This document shows, in pieces, positions 9,756-63,847 of a DNA stretch of 64,000 nt. How positions within the stretch are numbered: the stretch's first letter is position 1; every line of letters starts with the position of its first letter. The notes beneath the pieces are model-generated. The model did not search any database. It had not been told where the DNA came from and saw only the letters and a program-made list of their open reading frames with translations. Position numbers and translations under genes: made by a program. The stretch comes from an uncultured Gemmatimonadota bacterium (GTDB lineage: Bacteria > Gemmatimonadota > CAZMKB01): the NCBI GenBank assembly GCA_964654825.1, contig CAZZKG010000006.1, positions 3,478 through 67,477 of the forward strand, written 5' to 3'.

Positions 9756-11462
9756 ATGTTTGTCCATCTCACGAGAGCGTTTTGCGGAATACTCTGCGTC
9801 TCAACGTATCTTCATGCGCAAGGGGAGGCATCCAGGCTCACCCGTTTCCCCGAGCTGGACGGTTTTCCCGTCTCCTTCGAAGAAGACGTGTTTCCCTCCT
9901 CCGGTATGAACGTGGGGGATATCGACGGGGACGGCGACCTCGAGATATGCTTCGGTACACGGCGCGGTGCTCTCTTCGCTTACCACCACACCGGCGCCGT
10001 TGTCGAAGGATGGCCCGTCGGTATGGAAGGTGGATGGCTTGAAGCGACCCCTGCCCTGGTCGATATCGATAACGATGGCGATCTCGAAGTTTTCGTCACG
10101 AACGGTACTTATCTTCACGCCTTCCATCACGATGGAGAACCACTGGAGGGGTGGCCGGTCGCTCTCGATCATTCCGTTCACAGTGATGCCACACCTTCGA
10201 TCGGGGACCTGGACGGTGACGGAGATTACGAGATCGTTCACGGCGCCGCCGAATATCCCTGCCTCATCTTCGCCTGGCACCACGACGGCACGCCGGTCGA
10301 CGGCTGGCCGGTGTACATCCCGCCGGGATATCTTAACCACTGCGATTGTTTCGCAGCCCCCACTCTCGCCGATCTCGACGGAAACGGAAAACTCGAAGTT
10401 GTTGTCGTAACGAGAGGAGGCCAGGTGTATGTCATCAACAACGACGGGAGTGATTTCGAGGGCTGGCCGGTCGACGGTATCCAGGGCATGCACAATTACA
10501 ATTCCCCGGTGATCGGAGACATCGATAACGATGGAGAAGTCGACATTGTCGTGGTGGCAGATTACACGGTTTTCGCGTGGGACATAAACGGCAATGATAA
10601 GCCCGGCTGGCCATGGCAGGAGGGATTCTCCAGTGGTGTCATCCTGGCCGACCTCGTTTCCGATGAAGCCCTCGAGGTCATCGCGAACACATCTAACTCC
10701 ATCTATGTGCTCGACGGTCCGACCGGCGAAGTACTCCCCGGCTGGCCCCAGCCTGTGGGAATGTCAGTCAGTATCGCCGGGACGGTGATTACAAACGATA
10801 TCGACTCCGATGGTGAGAAGGAGATCCTCGTCGAATGCTGGGGACAGCATTCCGGCGTACGCTCAACCGGGTATGTGCTCGCTTATAATGCGGATGGGAG
10901 CACGGTCGAGGGATTCCCCATCGTCCTGGATTCTGAAACCGCCTCGCTGCCGCCGTTAATCGTCGATTTCGATCTCGACGGCGACCTCGACATCTGCGGC
11001 CTCACCGGTACGTATTTTCATGCCTGGGACCTTCCCTCCTATTTCGAGGCCGATCAGGGGGACTGGCGCATGCTGAACCACGATCCTTTTCACACCAACG
11101 ATTTCGGCCTGCTGCTCCCCACCGAGCATCCGATCGATGTCGGTCTCAAACCCGACACGGTGACCGTGCACCGGGGCGAATCGGTTGATCTGATAGCATC
11201 GTTCACCAATCGAAACGTCATCTACCAGCCGTTTACCACTGCGATATTTCTCAGGATGCCGAACGGTGAGCCTTTCCCGGCCAATCCACTGCTCGGTCCC
11301 CTGTCGCTGCGTCTCAAACTTCTCTCCGGGGTGATGACCGAGAAATCCCTTGATGTTCCGATCAATGCTCCACTCGGTGATTACCGGTTGCTACTCCCCG
11401 CCTGGACATCAGTGTACAACATCATGGACGTCGATTCCACGATAGTCCACGTCATCGATTGA
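9756..11462 (+). CDS. FG-GAP/VCBS repeat (integrin-alpha-like beta-propeller) secreted protein
   Basis: Repeated DxDGDGDLE(I/V) motifs (GDIDGDGDLEI, VDIDNDGDLEV, GDLDGDGDYEI, ADLDGNGKLEV, GDIDNDGEVDI, FDLDGDLDI) alternating with GWP motifs. Start is set at MFVHL..., a signal-like stretch after the upstream stop, rather than the overlapping track start 9678. Confidence 0.6.
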   Translation: MFVHLTRAFCGILCVSTYLHAQGEASRLTRFPELDGFPVSFEEDVFPSSGMNVGDIDGDGDLEICFGTRRGALFAYHHTGAVVEGWPVGMEGGWLEATPALVDIDNDGDLEVFVTNGTYLHAFHHDGEPLEGWPVALDHSVHSDATPSIGDLDGDGDYEIVHGAAEYPCLIFAWHHDGTPVDGWPVYIPPGYLNHCDCFAAPTLADLDGNGKLEVVVVTRGGQVYVINNDGSDFEGWPVDGIQGMHNYNSPVIGDIDNDGEVDIVVVADYTVFAWDINGNDKPGWPWQEGFSSGVILADLVSDEALEVIANTSNSIYVLDGPTGEVLPGWPQPVGMSVSIAGTVITNDIDSDGEKEILVECWGQHSGVRSTGYVLAYNADGSTVEGFPIVLDSETASLPPLIVDFDLDGDLDICGLTGTYFHAWDLPSYFEADQGDWRMLNHDPFHTNDFGLLLPTEHPIDVGLKPDTVTVHRGESVDLIASFTNRNVIYQPFTTAIFLRMPNGEPFPANPLLGPLSLRLKLLSGVMTEKSLDVPINAPLGDYRLLLPAWTSVYNIMDVDSTIVHVID

Positions 11463-17705: not shown

Positions 17706-17871
17706 GGTTTATCCCCAAGTCGGTCACCAGTGCGATCGTGTGAACCGGAACGCATTATTGCGATGATCCACCACCGGAGAGTGGCGAGTCTATCACTCTG
17801 ATTGATCATTTCGGTAAAAATATCAATACTATTGTATCTCACCACTTAGCCCGTGTCAATGCTAAATGTTG

Positions 17872-17935
17872 TAAATAGGGACAGTCACCGTTTAATTGTC
17901 ACAATTTTAAATAGGGACAGTCACCGTTTAATTAA
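17872..17935. repeat. Two direct REP copies (TAAATAGGGACAGTCACCGTTTAATT) at the 3' side of the RAYT gene
   Basis: Copies at ~17872-17897 and ~17907-17935. The same core recurs at 18773-18800 (inverted), 21870-21897, 50515-50591 (doublet) and 63818-63847. Confidence 0.8.
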
Positions 17936-17940
17936 ATAGA

Positions 17941-18612
17941 TTACTCTCGCTTCCAGGGACGCCCCTTGGGCATAGCCCGTAATCGCCGGTTTAAATTTCT
18001 CTCCAGCTCGGAGATAAACCCATCACTCCCCAACGGACGACCTGTCCGGTTGGAATTACGTATTTGAATCAATTCATCCACATCCTCTGTGGATTGTAAC
18101 GTTGTCTTCCAGTCTTTCCTGATATTTTCATCGCACCAAGTCGACATATCGAGTAATCCTGTTGAGTCATGACCCGTCACATGCGCCTTCGCACTCGACC
18201 ACGGATAACACCAGGCATCTCGTACGATACCGGCTCTTACTGGATTCCTTTCTACGTATCGGACCGTGGCCCAATAGTGCATTGCATCGAGAGGACAAGA
18301 GTAAAATCGGGCTTGCCAAAGATGGCCACTCCGATTATTAAGACGATTAAAGTATTGCGCATATGAAAAGTGCGTTCGGCCGAGGGTTTTCGACAGAGAG
18401 TCCTCGTTTGCCGGGACAACAACAAGGTGAACATGATTGGACATTAGACAGTACGAGTGAACAGTGAGATGATAACGTTTAGATTGTTCTTTCAAATACG
18501 ATATATATCGTTCCCTTTCACCATCGATAGCGAAAACGTCCTGGCGGTTATTCCCGCGTTGCGTGACGTGATGTGGTACACCAATAGCCACTGCTCTTGC
18601 TATTCTGACCAT
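17941..18612 (-). mobile_element. IS200/IS605-like Y1 transposase of the REP-associated tyrosine transposase (RAYT) type
   Basis: HxH motif CLMSNHVHLVV, catalytic Tyr region HYWATVRYVERNPVRAGIV, ~220 aa. Flanked by REPs in inverted orientation. Confidence 0.8.
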
Positions 18613-18772
18613 ATGGGAAACCTGTTCTTGAGAAACGAGTCGGAAAACAGGGAGGATGAAGGGAGCACGTTACAGATATCTAGTCACAGACTCAGATGAA
18701 TCTCGGAGGGGGCAAGGATAACTATCTCTAATATCTATAAAAAAAGGGTACTGTCAAGTAGTAAATCTAAAT

Positions 18773-18800
18773 AATAAACGGTGACTGTCCCTATTTAATT
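18773..18800. repeat. REP copy (inverted orientation) at the 5' side of the RAYT gene, overlapping the stop codon of the 18795-20078 gene
   Basis: AATAAACGGTGACTGTCCCTATTTAATT is the reverse complement of the 17872 repeat. Confidence 0.8.
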
Positions 18801-20078
18801 TGGGCGAGAAGCGACTGCGAGATAGGTGCGCCTCTTCCAGGGCTCGTTGACATCGTGTCCCGCGTTGTATGCTAGGATGTATCGGCCGTGTTCTTCATCG
18901 ATCATGAGGGTCGGCGTACGCTGGAAGCCTTCAGGCGGTACGCCGTCGGGAAACTGCCCCGGTGCGATGATCGGGTTATCCGGATGGCCGATCCAGGTGT
19001 CGCCCCAGTCGGGTGACCAGTAATAGGCGATGTGTCCGTAACCGGCGTAGTTCTGATTTGAAACCATTAAAACCATGTGGACGCCGTCAGCGATTGAATC
19101 ACCCGTACAGTGGGCCTGCCAGGCGCCGCGAAATGAAAACCCCTCCGGCCACGGCAGCGTCCACCGATAGGCGGGATTGTCCGGGTCGGAAGGATCGAAC
19201 GTCGGCTCCGGATTCTTCACCCAGCCGGTCTTGCCATCCTCGCTGTCCGCGTAGGAAATTCGCCAGTTCCAGTAGGAGCCGGGGGATCCGTGCAACCCCC
19301 GGTAGAAAAGCCTAACCTTTCCCTGTGTGCCCAGGCGAGGCACCCAGACCGGTGTCGGTTCACTCAGGCCACCCTTTATCACACCGTTCTGATCCCAGCC
19401 CTCCTCCCACCAGTATTCAGCAACTAGCATGTTCTCGTAAGTCTGATCGAATGGGACTCCGATCGCAGGCGGCGTCTCGCTCGTCGCCACCTGGATTGCA
19501 GTCTCCGATCCCGGTAGACCATCCCACTCCGGATGCAGATACTTCGTGCCGGGTCTCACGGTGTTGTAGAGCAGATGCTCACCGGTTACAGGATGTTGAA
19601 TGTAACCGGGCGTATCGGTGTGTTCCCACGCGGGACCCGGGTTTTGTCCTCCGGGACTGACGAGGGGCGTGTATTTGATTTTCGTAACCGGATCGTAGCC
19701 CAGGGCCCAGTCGTGAAGCACTTCTTCCTGGTAGGGGTGCTCGGTCATGTATGTCGCGTGATAGCTGTGATACAGCAGCTTTATCATGCCACCCTCGAGA
19801 AAAATGAACTCTTCACCGACGATACCTCCCCAGTCGCCGTACAGGTGTGTCTGAGAATCAGGATAATCAGGATGGGGGGCTGTTATGAAACCGATGGGCG
19901 TGAAATCCGGCCATTCCCCCAGCGGACCGTCTTCGCCGAAGTTATGCGGTATGGCCAACCTGGGGGTGAGGAACTCATTGGAATCATTTGAATCCGCACC
20001 GTTCTGGGGCCGTAACGGGGAGAACAGGAGAAGACAGATCGAGAAGAAAGCAGTGATGATTATCGTGATGCGGTACAT
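18795..20078 (-). CDS. Secreted Trp-rich hypothetical protein (possible glycoside-hydrolase-like beta-propeller)
   Basis: Signal peptide MYRITIIITAFFSICLLLFSPL. No confident family. Last codon and stop lie within the REP. Confidence 0.35.
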   Translation of the reverse strand: MYRITIIITAFFSICLLLFSPLRPQNGADSNDSNEFLTPRLAIPHNFGEDGPLGEWPDFTPIGFITAPHPDYPDSQTHLYGDWGGIVGEEFIFLEGGMIKLLYHSYHATYMTEHPYQEEVLHDWALGYDPVTKIKYTPLVSPGGQNPGPAWEHTDTPGYIQHPVTGEHLLYNTVRPGTKYLHPEWDGLPGSETAIQVATSETPPAIGVPFDQTYENMLVAEYWWEEGWDQNGVIKGGLSEPTPVWVPRLGTQGKVRLFYRGLHGSPGSYWNWRISYADSEDGKTGWVKNPEPTFDPSDPDNPAYRWTLPWPEGFSFRGAWQAHCTGDSIADGVHMVLMVSNQNYAGYGHIAYYWSPDWGDTWIGHPDNPIIAPGQFPDGVPPEGFQRTPTLMIDEEHGRYILAYNAGHDVNEPWKRRTYLAVASRPN

Positions 20079-21869: not shown

Positions 21870-21897
21870 AATAAATGGTGACTGTCCCTATTTAGAG
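21870..21897. repeat. REP copy inserted at the 3' end of the PNP gene, supplying its last two codons and the TAG stop
   Basis: AATAAATGGTGACTGTCCCTATTTAGAG. It is flanked by two diverged ~60-bp copies of the gene's 3' coding end (21813-21870 and 21903-21963). Confidence 0.75.
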
Positions 21898-22925
21898 TGA
21901 ACTGCACGCTTGAGGAGGCAGGTGAGCTTGCCGGCGCTTCTTTCAACCGCGTCGAGTACCTCGCGGTGGGTGGTCCGGTGCCCGGGCCCGGAAGTGGGAT
22001 TTTCCGAAGAAGCCGTACCGGTGGACTTCGATGAGCCTGTTTCCTCGACAGGGGAGATTGAGAGATCCCGGCTCTCATATCGGTAGACGTGTGAATAGGT
22101 GTTGGTGATGAGGGAGATACAGGCCGTCTTCAGTCCGATGTGATTCGCGATGATCGTTTCAGGGATACTCGACATGGTGACCGCGTCGATTCCCATATTC
22201 CTGAGAGCGGCGATCTCGGCGATGGTCTCATACCCCGGGCCCGGTAGCGCGGCCAGGACACCGCGGGAGAGGGGGACACCTTCGTCCACTGCGGCACGCT
22301 CGATCCTACGCATGAGCCCGGGATCGAACGGTTCGACCATATCTACGAACCTCCCTATCCCTCTCACCCACATTTCTCTGAGCGGGCTTCGCCAGGATAG
22401 GTTCACATGATCACGAACGAGGAGGATATCACCGGGATCTAGACGAGGAGAAACACCTCCGGAGGCGCAGGTCATAATGATCTCGTTCACTCCGAGAGAT
22501 CTAACGAGACACAATGGATAGGCAATGTCCTCCGCGGCGATCCCCTCGTAGTAGTGGACTCGGCCGTCCAAGACGAGCACACGCGTGTCCCCCAGGGTGC
22601 CCCAGTGGAGCAGGCCGGCGTGTCCTTCGACACCCGGGACTGACATCCCGGGGATGTCCCGGTAGGAAAAGGTGTGGGAATTTTTCATCTCTCGGGGGAT
22701 CGCACCGAATCCGGACCCGAGGACCAGGCAGACATCCGCCCCGCCCATCCCTCTCTGCTTCAGATCAGCCGCCGCGGCTCTGCTGATTTTCAGAAGATGC
22801 TCCAGGCCGTCCCCGACACTCCTGCCTTTAACGCCGAATGTCGAGCCGGTATACAAGAGCGCCTTCCCGAGGAGAGTGGTAATAGTCCTTCTGAACCATG
22901 ACAAATGTGAACCCATTTTTTTCAT
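21888..22925 (-). CDS. Purine nucleoside phosphorylase family protein (PNP/MTAP type)
   Basis: CLVLGSGFG, HAGLLHWG, MTCASGG, ETIAEIAALRNMGIDAVTMSSIPE motifs of PNP_UDP_1. The true start is probably internal, because the track start overlaps rimI by ~100 nt. Confidence 0.75.
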   Translation of the reverse strand: MKKMGSHLSWFRRTITTLLGKALLYTGSTFGVKGRSVGDGLEHLLKISRAAAADLKQRGMGGADVCLVLGSGFGAIPREMKNSHTFSYRDIPGMSVPGVEGHAGLLHWGTLGDTRVLVLDGRVHYYEGIAAEDIAYPLCLVRSLGVNEIIMTCASGGVSPRLDPGDILLVRDHVNLSWRSPLREMWVRGIGRFVDMVEPFDPGLMRRIERAAVDEGVPLSRGVLAALPGPGYETIAEIAALRNMGIDAVTMSSIPETIIANHIGLKTACISLITNTYSHVYRYESRDLSISPVEETGSSKSTGTASSENPTSGPGHRTTHREVLDAVERSAGKLTCLLKRAVHSK

Positions 22926-50514: not shown

Positions 50515-50591
50515 ATAAATAGGGACAGTCACCATTTATTTAAAAATAACATAACGGTGACAAAAAAATAAATGGTGACTGTCCCTATTTA
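50515..50591. repeat. REP doublet: perfect 25-bp inverted repeat (ATAAATAGGGACAGTCACCATTTAT / ATAAATGGTGACTGTCCCTATTTAT) with 27-bp spacer, between the priming transferase and wza
   Basis: Arms at 50515-50539 and 50567-50591 are exact reverse complements, with the same core as the RAYT-flanking REPs. Confidence 0.85.
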
Positions 50592-50734
50592 TCGTAGACA
50601 ATGACAGCGGGTAGTCGAGGTTCCTGGCCAGGCGAGACGACGCAAGGAGTATCTTTAGTTACTCCGAGGAGTAGCAACGCAGCCAGGGGACTTGAGAGTC
50701 GCCTGAATTGGTGATGAATTTCTGGGACGGGACA

Positions 50735-55943: not shown

Positions 55944-56029
55944 GCGAGAGTGGCGGAACTGGTAGACGCGCTGGACTTAGGATCCTGTGGGCATGACCCG
56001 TGGGGGTTCAAGTCCCCCCTCTCGCACCA
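55944..56029 (+). tRNA. tRNA-Leu (anticodon TAG), type II with long variable arm, CCA encoded
   Basis: Acceptor GCGAGAG/CTCTCGC, D-arm GCGG-AACTGGTAGA-CGCG, anticodon loop CTTAGGA, T-arm GGGGG-TTCAAGT-CCCCC, 3' ACCA. Confidence 0.85.
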
Positions 56030-62585: not shown

Positions 62586-63502
62586 TCAGGCAGCCTGGCG
62601 ATAGTAAAACCGAAGCAGACCACCCAGGCGTTCCCGACATCGGATATCCTCATCAGTATCAACAGGTGTTGGTTCAGGATCAATGATCTGATTCGCAAGT
62701 CCTTGGTGATTCCGTTCCCGGTGGTAATGATCCAGGTAATTTCGAATAGTTCGCTGCAGTGATCCAACGCCGAAGAAGATCATCTTGTTCAGGCATTCAT
62801 GTTTTATGGATTTCACAAAGCGTTCAGCAAAAGCATTGCAATTCGGGGCTCTTACGGGGAGTGCGTGATTCCTGCAAGATAGACTTTTCGGGTCGAAAGC
62901 TCCATGAAGAATAGGATATAGAACGTTACAAGGCTACTGAGTGTCCACACCTCGACGGTGAAGAAATCGGCTGCAGTAAAGGTCTCCCAATGGACCTTCA
63001 AGAATGTGTTCCAGGTTGTTCGTTTCATACGCTCAGGTGCTGGCTCGATGCCATGACGCTTCAAGATATTTGCAATGGAGGTGGGAGCGACCTTGTGGCC
63101 GAGATTCTTCAGGGTACCTTGGATTCTATCATATCCCCAGCTCGAATTTTCGGTAGCCATGCGAACTACCAACTCGGTAATCTTCTTCATGACCGGTGGC
63201 CGTCCAGGACCCTTTCTCGGACAGGTCCATTTCAAGGCTGTGAGCTTTCGATGCCAGGCGATCAGGGTATCGGGAGTCACGATGGTGGCAAACCTGAATA
63301 GGAGCTTATGACCCAGTATCTTACTCTTCCTTGCAAGCCTGCGGCGCTGGTCATCGTTCAGCCTGAGACGTCTTCCTTTGTGGAGTTCCTTTAAAACTCG
63401 GTTTTCCTCGATAAGGTAATCAATGATATTCTGCTGATGCCTGTTGACCCAGCCAGAGAAGACCATCAGGAGCAGTTGTAGGGGTTGAAGTGTCGTTTTC
63501 AT
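62586..63502 (-). pseudogene. Degraded DDE (rve/integrase-core) transposase: N-terminal HTH + start of catalytic domain (62852-63502) and C-terminal fragment (62586-62816) in different frames, with the middle of the catalytic core missing
   Basis: N-part has the HTH and early rve region (TAADFFTVEVW...MELSTRKVYLAGITH). C-part has the rve C-terminal signature ...HYHRERNHQGL. The two parts are in different frames, and the combined length is ~100 aa short. Confidence 0.6.
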
Positions 63503-63817: not shown

Positions 63818-63847
63818 CCGTAAATGGTGACTATCCCTGTTTATACT
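63818..63847. repeat. Degenerate REP copy (CCGTAAATGGTGACTATCCCTGTTTATAC)
   Basis: Two mismatches to the REP core GGTGACTGTCCC. Confidence 0.5.

Follow-up and report, generated by a model that had tools for sequence, protein, structure and literature searches.

The 64-kb stretch of contig CAZZKG010000006.1 analysed here (hereafter the window) carries, at 17941..18612 on the minus strand, a gene for a Y1 HUH tyrosine transposase-like protein of 223 amino acids, bracketed by inverted copies of a short repeat. This unit is most probably a 'TIRtron', that is, a single-copy gene for a TIRYT-type Y1/HUH endonuclease framed by inverted cognate terminal inverted repeats (TIRs) of 23-26 nt, which are also found dispersed away from the gene. 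The feature is real, its type has already been described (Di Nocera, De Gregorio & Rocco 2013, BMC Genomics 14:522, PMC3733652), and the repeat is not a new class. A sequence-only reading of the same stretch had proposed a Y1 transposase with an HxH motif and a catalytic Tyr, which is what the gene encodes (Pfam Y1_Tnp, 50.8 bits; H60, H62 and Y119 invariant in the family), and membership of the RAYT (REP-associated tyrosine transposase) superfamily with a dispersed flanking repeat and one REPIN-like inverted doublet also stood. The label of a classic organisation of a RAYT with its repetitive extragenic palindromes (REPs) had to be given up, as the protein scores under the cutoff of the RAYT model NF047646 and belongs to the TIRYT/subclass 2.1/Group 1 branch, and as the repeat has no GTAG or CGTC tag.

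Profile searches, the check suggested with the earlier reading, gave a split answer: the 223-residue protein was recognized by Y1_Tnp (cutoff 23), and its score with the NCBIfam RAYT model REP_Tyr_transpos (NF047646) was 66 bits, under the cutoff of 80. All 25 members of a family alignment matched NF047646 (best E 1e-21). With the NCBIfam IS200 model the window protein scored 19.4 bits, far under the cutoff of 55. Its homologues fill more than 7,900 database clusters, the nearest of which, identical ones aside, shares 67% identity; clusters with a name come mostly from metagenome-assembled genomes (MAGs) of Planctomycetota. The residues invariant in the 25-sequence alignment are H60 and H62 (NHVH), W99-Q100, Y119 (YVERNP) and W138-S139-S140, and H60-V-H62 and Y119 align with the HUH motif and the Tyr of Escherichia coli TnpA_REP (PDB 4ER8). 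The catalytic core spans about residues 1-140 and is followed by a conserved helical extension (141-223), which contains the block TGRPLGSDxFISKLE...GRRLRxxPxGRP. An AlphaFold2 model (predicted local distance difference test, pLDDT, 89.4; predicted template modelling score, pTM, 0.87) had as its top PDB fold match in Foldseek 4ER8, the E. coli TnpA_REP with a bound REP hairpin (E 7e-9; TM-score 0.73 on the target), followed by the TnpA proteins of IS608, ISDra2 and IS200; the last 80 residues are modelled as helices. Neither a further copy nor a fragment of the gene was found in the 64 kb; in the window it is single copy.

Reference TIRYT sequences were taken from Additional file 5 of PMC3733652 and compared with the window protein by BLASTP. 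Full-length identity was 47% to pca3049 of Pelobacter carbinolicus, 46% to aba2776 of Koribacter versatilis (222 aa, E 2e-70) and 43% to gsu2396 of Geobacter, compared with 21% and 24%, each over about 90 residues, for the classical RAYTs b0228 of E. coli and ppf5083 of Pseudomonas putida. The BLASTP comparison and the alignment thus identify a TIRYT homologue with HUH motif and catalytic Tyr. Its repeats are terminal, inverted and not of the GTAG type, neither strand of the unit containing GTAG or CGTC. Many TIRtron TIRs share a GGGGWSAS motif, which was proposed from 26 cases (Di Nocera, De Gregorio & Rocco 2013, PMC3733652); the window core AGGGACAG agrees with it at 7/8 positions and is one base from an exact match.

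Quentin et al. (2018, PMC6006769) suggested that the TIRYT proteins of Di Nocera et al. (2013) correspond to their subclass 2.1, which they equated with Group 1 of Bertels. The key features of this subclass (Table 1, PMC6006769) are NHVH or NH[YF]H, W[EQ], YIELNP or Y[IV]HLNP, an 'SS' tail motif, a C-terminal domain and a median length of 238 aa. With NHVH, WQ, YVERNP, YPWSS, a helical C-terminal extension and 223 aa, the window protein fits subclass 2.1/Group 1, a placement made on motifs, length and pairwise identity. YVERNP keeps the Y-x-E-x-NP frame and differs from the tyrosine motif of the subclass at two positions. A C-terminal helix-turn-helix (HTH)-like domain (Bac_DnaA_C, HTH_23 or HTH_28), also listed for the subclass, was not found by the Pfam search: at E <= 1 none of the 25 members matched any Pfam family in its C-terminal part. 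This may indicate subgroup 2.1.1, whose extension is called conserved by the authors. Compared with PDB profiles, the C-terminal part gave nothing significant, the only matches being weak ones to EDF1/MBF1 profiles (E about 0.1). The features of a classical RAYT, a score above the NF047646 cutoff and a stable, GTAG- or CGTC-tagged palindrome, were both lacking, as were those of IS200/IS605 elements (a match to the IS200 model, multiple copies and asymmetric subterminal hairpins).

Seven copies of the repeat were counted in the 64-kb window, four of them away from the gene. The 12-mer GGGACAGTCACC occurs there in six exact copies and one with a single mismatch, compared with 0.35 expected, and none of 100 shuffled sequences reached seven. 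Exact copies lie at 17878(+), 17914(+), 18780(-), 21877(-), 50522(+) and 50574(-), and the copy with one mismatch at 63826(-). An nhmmer profile of the 28-nt units found the same seven sites and no other (E 6e-9 to 2.5e-7; next match, E 1.6), so that the dispersed copies announced by the sequence-only reading near 21870, near 50515 (a perfect inverted doublet) and near 63818 (degenerate) were all recovered by both methods.

Also confirmed was the arrangement proposed around the gene, with two direct copies on one side and an inverted copy on the other. The inner downstream repeat (17907..17932, plus strand) is inverted relative to the gene and ends 8 nt past its stop codon. The outer downstream repeat (17871..17896, plus strand), between this stop codon and accD, duplicates the inner copy in direct tandem, with a period of 36 nt and 97% identity. 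A single inverted copy, the upstream TIR (18773..18798, minus strand), lies 5' of the start codon, reads TTAAATAGGGACAGTCACCGTTTATT in the orientation of the gene and begins right at the TAA stop of ORF 18795..20078(-) (ORF, open reading frame). The gene-flanking arms, 17872-17894 or 17907-17930 versus 18775-18798, are 23-24 nt long and 100% complementary. The TAA of AAATTAAATAG, just before the arm of the upstream repeat, is the one that ends ORF 18795..20078(-).

Away from the gene, a singlet at 21870..21895 on the minus strand, identified by nhmmer and by the 12-mer, lies at the end of an ORF of the PNP_UDP_1 family; the AAATAG of its 5' arm supplies the TAG stop of this ORF (21888..22925, minus strand). 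A doublet between a Bac_transf and a Poly_export gene is composed of 50515-50540 (+) and 50567-50592 (-), that is, two perfectly complementary 27-nt arms around a 24-nt spacer, with a plus then minus polarity as around the gene. The remaining copy is a degenerate singlet, TATAAACAGGGATAGTCACCATTTAC, at 63820..63845 on the minus strand (nhmmer E 2.5e-7; one mismatch in the 12-mer core). All copies in the window are intergenic or touch stop codons, and the dispersed sites are mostly gene 3' ends. At Rfam gathering thresholds no RNA family was found at the repeats; the only match in the whole window was the tRNA gene at 55944-56026 (+). About 320 nt from the degenerate singlet lies an apparently broken integrase-type transposase (62586-63502, minus strand), in which a 216-aa ORF with N-terminal HTH_32 and HTH_21 is followed by a 76-aa fragment in another frame (...YLDHYHRERNHQGL...).

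The repeat unit reads (T)AAATA-GGGACAGTCACC-RTTTA, with an A-rich 5' arm and a T-rich 3' arm around a core that is an imperfect palindrome, GGGAC-A-GTC(A)CC. The 6-bp ATAAAT/ATTTAT stem described by the sequence-only reading is a perfect complement in the copies at 50522 and 50574 only; the gene-flanking copies read TAAAT...GTTTA, and singlets are unstable. Because the GTAG/CGTC tag and a stable palindrome are both absent, the window units are, in published terminology (PMC3733652), TIRs rather than REPs.

The association of this repeat with this protein was examined across lineages from both ends. Starting from the motif, one genome per species was scanned for the 16-mer AATAGGGACAGTCACC, which yielded at least 111 loci of 8 kb. 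The T-rich 3' arm was in place at 114 of the 145 usable matches listed, compared with about 7% by chance on a rough estimate. Matches in a repeat context came from MAGs labelled Planctomycetota (several orders), Hydrogenedentota, Verrucomicrobiota, Acidobacteriota/Holophagales, Nitrospiraceae, Gemmatimonadota, Bdellovibrionales, Deltaproteobacteria and Alphaproteobacteria; the exact 16-mer thus occurs in repeat context in at least eight phyla, a figure that relies on MAG labels and could be inflated by binning errors. A homologue of the window protein adjoins the motif in 13 of the 111 loci listed.

Starting from the protein, a metagenome scan with peptide patterns derived from the family alignment yielded 80 loci (L115-L194) encoding proteins 45-56% identical to that of the window. 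Sixty-nine loci had enough flank for a de novo search for inverted repeats, and in most of them it found one that contains GGGAC(A/G). Among the 63 loci with both flanks, GGGAC[AG]N was present upstream in the orientation of the gene in 57 (3 in the opposite-orientation control) and inverted downstream in 51 (7 in the control). The distance from core to ATG clusters at 52-60 nt. GGGACAG is present in 48/63 upstream repeats, many of which read GGGGACAG, an exact GGGGWSAS, and the core varies with lineage (GGGACAGTCACC, GGGACAGCGACC, GGGGACAGACGGGACG, GGGGACAGGCTACG). The window repeat is therefore one variant of a widespread repeat family that had been noted earlier; the suggestion that it may be a new REP class fell with the 7/8 fit of AGGGACAG to GGGGWSAS and the finding of the same 16-mer at more than 100 loci, in many phyla. 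Searched for in the literature, the 12-mer and its reverse complement turned up solely in eukaryotic primer sequences, which are unrelated.

One homologue of 60% identity, at 9950-10760 of a complete Phycisphaerales genome (CP070691), has flanking inverted repeats that have diverged further (ATGACAGTTACT; AATTCATGACAGTTACTARTTTC), with GACAGT all that is left of the core. As proteins of 50-57% identity elsewhere keep the full 16-mer, the repeats have not diverged in step with the proteins. A scan of viral contigs gave five matches; the repeat context was real in one, and the other four look like chance, so that an association of the repeat with phages was not borne out. The real one is a back-to-back (-+) doublet at 60-130 of IMG/VR UViG_3300050015_000944, near the contig end, and it may be host flank.

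Doublets were recurrent in the motif-first loci. Among the matches listed, neighbouring sites no more than 200 nt apart were in +- orientation in 51 of 78 cases (++ 14, -+ 9, -- 4), with spacings clustered at about 30-34, 40-43, 60-65 and 99-102 nt. Since their polarity is that of the gene-flanking pair, these doublets look like gene-less miniature units, in the manner of REPINs or miniature inverted-repeat transposable elements (MITEs). The window doublet at 50515-50592 likewise keeps the polarity of the gene-flanking pair and for this reason looks like a TIRtron minus its gene; with two inverted units, a short spacer and a long hairpin, it has the features of a REPIN. As single-stranded DNA it forms 27 bp (-25.9 kcal/mol, z -10.9) and is the sole form of the repeat in the window that folds well.

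In half of the relatives the upstream repeat adjoins what looks like the promoter of the gene. TTGAC follows the repeat at 32/63 homologous loci (3/63 in the control), and its T lies 34-40 nt before the ATG, most often 35 nt (17 loci; for example L141, L142 and L157); locus L141 reads TTGACA-17-TATAAT-6-ATG. A spacing of about 35 nt predicts a leaderless mRNA, transcribed from a promoter whose -35 box abuts the repeat. Exceptions are the window and its closest relative, L113, which have an insert of about 110-145 nt. The window has a promoter-like TTGACA-16-GATATT at 18730..18757 on the minus strand (10/12 in a consensus scan), 17 nt downstream of the upstream TIR's 3' arm; a transcript from this putative promoter would have a leader of about 115-120 nt ahead of the ATG (18612). 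A second promoter-like sequence, TTGACA-17-TACAAT (11/12), lies at 17831-17859 (-), 12 nt outside the outer downstream repeat and before accD (start 17705), and L113 has TTGACA-17-TATAAT at the equivalent place, before a different gene. Such an outside site was rejected as a general part of the element, being present in 2 of 57 other relatives.

Often the outer (5') arm is duplicated in tandem, 2-4 times and at a period that is mostly 8-16 nt. Duplications affected the outer arm in 20 of 80 gene-flanking repeats and the inner arm in 3 of 80; the corresponding figures for the motif-first sites listed were 17/114 and 4/114. They were seen in L003, L006, L013, L045, L047, L070, L093, L094, L178, L186, L187, L193 and others, and the duplicated units begin with GG(G) like the core, for example GGGATAAATA-GGGATAAATA-GGGACAG. 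The 36-nt duplication of the whole downstream unit in the window (17871-17932) may be the same phenomenon on a larger scale. Arm duplications could be footprints of cutting and joining at the arm/core junction, products of replication slippage, or iteron-like binding sites.

By analogy with the TnpA of IS608 and E. coli TnpA_REP, the most likely mechanism has three steps. The enzyme would bind a site centred on GGGAC(A/G) in single-stranded DNA, for example at a replication fork, where a doublet would be folded as a 27-bp hairpin; Y119, with a metal bound by the HUH motif, would cut the DNA; and the DNA would be rejoined, so that repeat units would be moved or copied in trans, the gene-flanking pair also being acted on. 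Cutting and rejoining of single strands by the HUH motif and the Tyr, a chemistry established for those two enzymes, should be expected from the modelled fold and the catalytic residues. Of the substrates, doublets would be preferred, since no other form of the repeat gives a strong hairpin as single-stranded DNA. Binding at the upstream repeat probably also controls the gene, as this repeat adjoins the gene's own -35 box. The sequence data establish the family of the protein, its intact catalytic motifs, the layout and dispersal of the repeat and the association of the two across lineages, from which DNA binding, cleavage, mobilization and autoregulation are to be distinguished as inferred.

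Several observations weigh against the TIRtron reading or against this mechanism. As single-stranded DNA, the singlets of the window have energies of 0 to -1 kcal/mol (z -0.5 to +1.4), no better than shuffled sequences, so that the folding check suggested earlier came out positive for the doublet and negative for single units. The 117 distinct gene-flanking repeats of the family have a median energy of -2.7 kcal/mol, and 17% of them score z <= -2. Perfect palindromes are present in some lineages (for example AAATAGGGAC-A-GTCCCTATTT, -6.6 kcal/mol) and absent from others. Covariation of the arms beyond the A-rich/T-rich consensus is weak: the plain register gives no signal, and a register with a bulged A gives a modest one (2.97 versus 2.63 +/- 0.10 Watson-Crick pairs of 5). 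Because singlets are unstable and arm covariation is weak, hairpin recognition as in IS608 or TnpA_REP may not apply, and recognition of double-stranded DNA instead is possible. The single unit is accordingly not claimed as a conserved hairpin, and the conserved features of the repeat are its core sequence and its inverted arrangement. The repeat and promoter of the window are about 145 nt from the ATG instead of about 35 nt as in most relatives. No sign of recent movement of the repeat, and no support for the 'autonomous' mobility of the sequence-only reading, was seen in near-identical ENA and JGI populations: the doublet was fixed and unchanged in all four population contigs that span it (L197-L199 among the carriers), the gene-flanking repeats were identical or nearly so in every population variant compared, and among these variants neither an empty site nor an insertion polymorphism of the doublet was found. 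The copy number refers to the 64-kb window only, out of a contig of 97,381 nt, and the cited literature on the group reports no enzymatic test of a subclass 2.1 member.

A search of the ENA contigs for further copies added nothing new. Two short population contigs, L196 and L200, end about 25-65 nt before the doublet (compare window 50592-50660). Contigs commonly end at repeated sequences in assemblies, and these ends are a weak sign that the genome holds more copies of the repeat.

Composition, neighbourhood and conservation of the gene bear on the other explanations of the unit. A classical REP-RAYT (REPIN) system, in which a vertically inherited RAYT of the Group 2/3 type mobilizes species-specific hairpin REPs, has the same general layout, with a single-copy Y1 gene between inverted repeats, other copies scattered at gene ends and an inverted doublet, and the top PDB fold match is the E. 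coli TnpA_REP. We nevertheless consider it very unlikely, given the score under the NCBIfam RAYT cutoff (66 versus 80), the 21-24% partial identity to the E. coli and P. putida RAYTs compared with 46-47% over the full length to TIRYTs, a repeat without GTAG or CGTC tag whose singlets are not stable palindromes, and the occurrence of this repeat in MAGs labelled as many phyla, where a species-specific sequence is required. The gene also looks foreign rather than vertically inherited: its G+C content is 47.8%, with 46% at third codon positions (GC3) compared with a GC3 of 67-70% in accD, ORF 18795..20078 and lon, which suggests foreign or recently acquired DNA. This same low G+C and GC3 relative to the neighbours would suit an autonomous insertion sequence (IS) of the IS200/IS605 type, for which the whole unit of about 930 bp would be the transposon and the short copies remnants or solo ends, and so would the 62%-identical homologue of another MAG, L113, which has the same type of repeat between unrelated genes. 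According to Bertels (2017, PMC5581495), Group 1 is the most IS-like RAYT group, leaving out Group 6 (within IS200), with 6.3% duplicates and some plasmid copies. However, the neighbours of the gene are accD and an unannotated ORF, with no adjacent tnpB, the IS200 model gives 19.4 bits for a cutoff of 55, and the 64 kb contain one gene copy and no fragments. Known IS200/IS605 ends are subterminal hairpins, not inverted repeats (PMC6006769), and regularly spaced short doublets are far commoner in related loci than gene-containing units; an IS of this type is therefore highly improbable.

A third explanation, compatible with a TIRtron, is that the protein has been domesticated for DNA binding or processing and that the repeats are its binding sites in a host role rather than mobile DNA; possible roles are transcription termination, protection of mRNA 3' ends, nucleoid organization and autoregulation. 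In line with it, half of the relatives have the -35 box of the gene's own promoter directly next to the repeat, at a constant spacing, copies in the window coincide with gene 3' ends and account for two stop codons, the core is kept across deep protein divergence (45-57% identity), and the population variants compared show no insertion polymorphism; co-option of RAYTs in general has also been argued for (Bertels 2017, PMC5581495). Against it, the HUH motif and the Tyr are strictly conserved, which argues that DNA cleavage matters, the number and arrangement of repeats vary between lineages (singlets, doublets and tandem arm duplications) as in a proliferating sequence, and the composition of the gene speaks against a long residence in the genome. 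Domestication in place of mobility is thus unlikely, and the TIRtron remains the reading that we favour.

The host is probably a Glassbacteria-like bacterium of a candidate phylum, judging from AccD, whose closest named relatives are Candidatus Glassbacteria (78% identity) and Zixibacteria (64%); NCBI files Glassiibacteriota under 'Bacteria candidate phyla'. The sequence-only reading had proposed a high-GC lineage resembling the Fibrobacterota-Chlorobiota-Bacteroidota (FCB) group: the lineage is roughly supported by the AccD relatives, and 'high-GC' is an overstatement for a G+C content of 53%.

Taken alone, this is an unremarkable case of a known element type, from a candidate phylum that has received little study. 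What it leads to is broader. Among the branches of Y1 transposase-like proteins, subclass 2.1 ranks second in size and is found in about 15% of strains, and Quentin et al., who listed it as 'REP: no', called for its further analysis (PMC6006769); Bertels et al. found only modestly abundant flanking 16-mers for Group 1 (PMC5581495). A conserved repeat at a fixed position and orientation in about 90% of 63 independently sampled homologues provides a defined substrate for Group 1 biochemistry, and an identical 16-mer has proliferated as doublets in several phyla. It is conceivable, and we put it forward as a tentative idea, that a single ancient recognition system, and not many species-specific ones, unites Group 1 RAYT/TIRYT enzymes and their repeats. 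Three observations suggest this: a GGGAC(A/G) core kept across proteins of 45-57% identity and, by MAG label, at least eight phyla; the position of the core against the -35 box of a predicted leaderless promoter, as if expression of the enzyme were linked to its binding of the repeat; and the outer arm being duplicated far more often than the inner one. If such a system existed, the outer-arm duplications would be natural footprints of cutting and joining, or iteron-like sites for the C-terminal domain, and it would fill the 'REP: no' gap of the second-largest TnpA_Y1 subclass.

Among known systems, the TIRtrons of Di Nocera et al. (PMC3733652) are the closest. They share with the window unit a RAYT-like Y1 protein that is extended at the C terminus by a long stretch (46-47% identity to aba2776 and pca3049), flanking inverted repeats that are unrelated to GTAG REPs, moderately abundant and able to occur as dimers, and the GGGGWSAS motif, which AGGGACAG matches at 7/8 positions. 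They differ in that the window host belongs to a candidate phylum outside the coverage of that study, and the core of the upstream repeat is about 180 nt from the ATG in the window instead of the usual 52-60 nt. In K. versatilis only the repeats of ORF1552, and so not those of aba2776, form a repeated family (PMC3733652), whereas the window repeats occur at four extra sites in 64 kb. Subclass 2.1 (PMC6006769), that is, Group 1 (PMC5581495), has in common with the window protein NHVH, WQ, Y-x-E-x-NP, WSS, the C-terminal domain and a similar length (223 aa, for a median of 238). Quentin et al. listed no REP-like sequence near its genes (PMC6006769), unlike the conserved flanking repeat found here and in about 90% of relatives; in addition, the window protein has YVERNP in place of YIELNP or Y[IV]HLNP and no Pfam match of the Bac_DnaA_C or HTH type.

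The E. coli TnpA_REP/REPtron (4ER8; Ton-Hoang 2012, Messing 2012, PMC3479197) and the Pseudomonas REPIN-RAYT systems (Bertels & Rainey 2011, PMC3116915) resemble the window unit in catalytic fold, single-copy gene and inverted flanking repeats, and in having dispersed singlets together with inverted doublets that fold as long hairpins. The window protein, however, is 21% identical and has a C-terminal domain of about 80 additional residues, and its repeat lacks GTAG, is unstable as a single unit and has a core common to several phyla. With the TnpA proteins of IS200/IS605 elements (IS608, ISDra2) the window protein shares the HUH/Y1 core and, presumably, single-strand cut-and-join chemistry; it differs from them in failing the IS200 model, in lacking tnpB, in being encoded by a single-copy gene, and in being flanked by inverted repeats instead of asymmetric subterminal hairpins.

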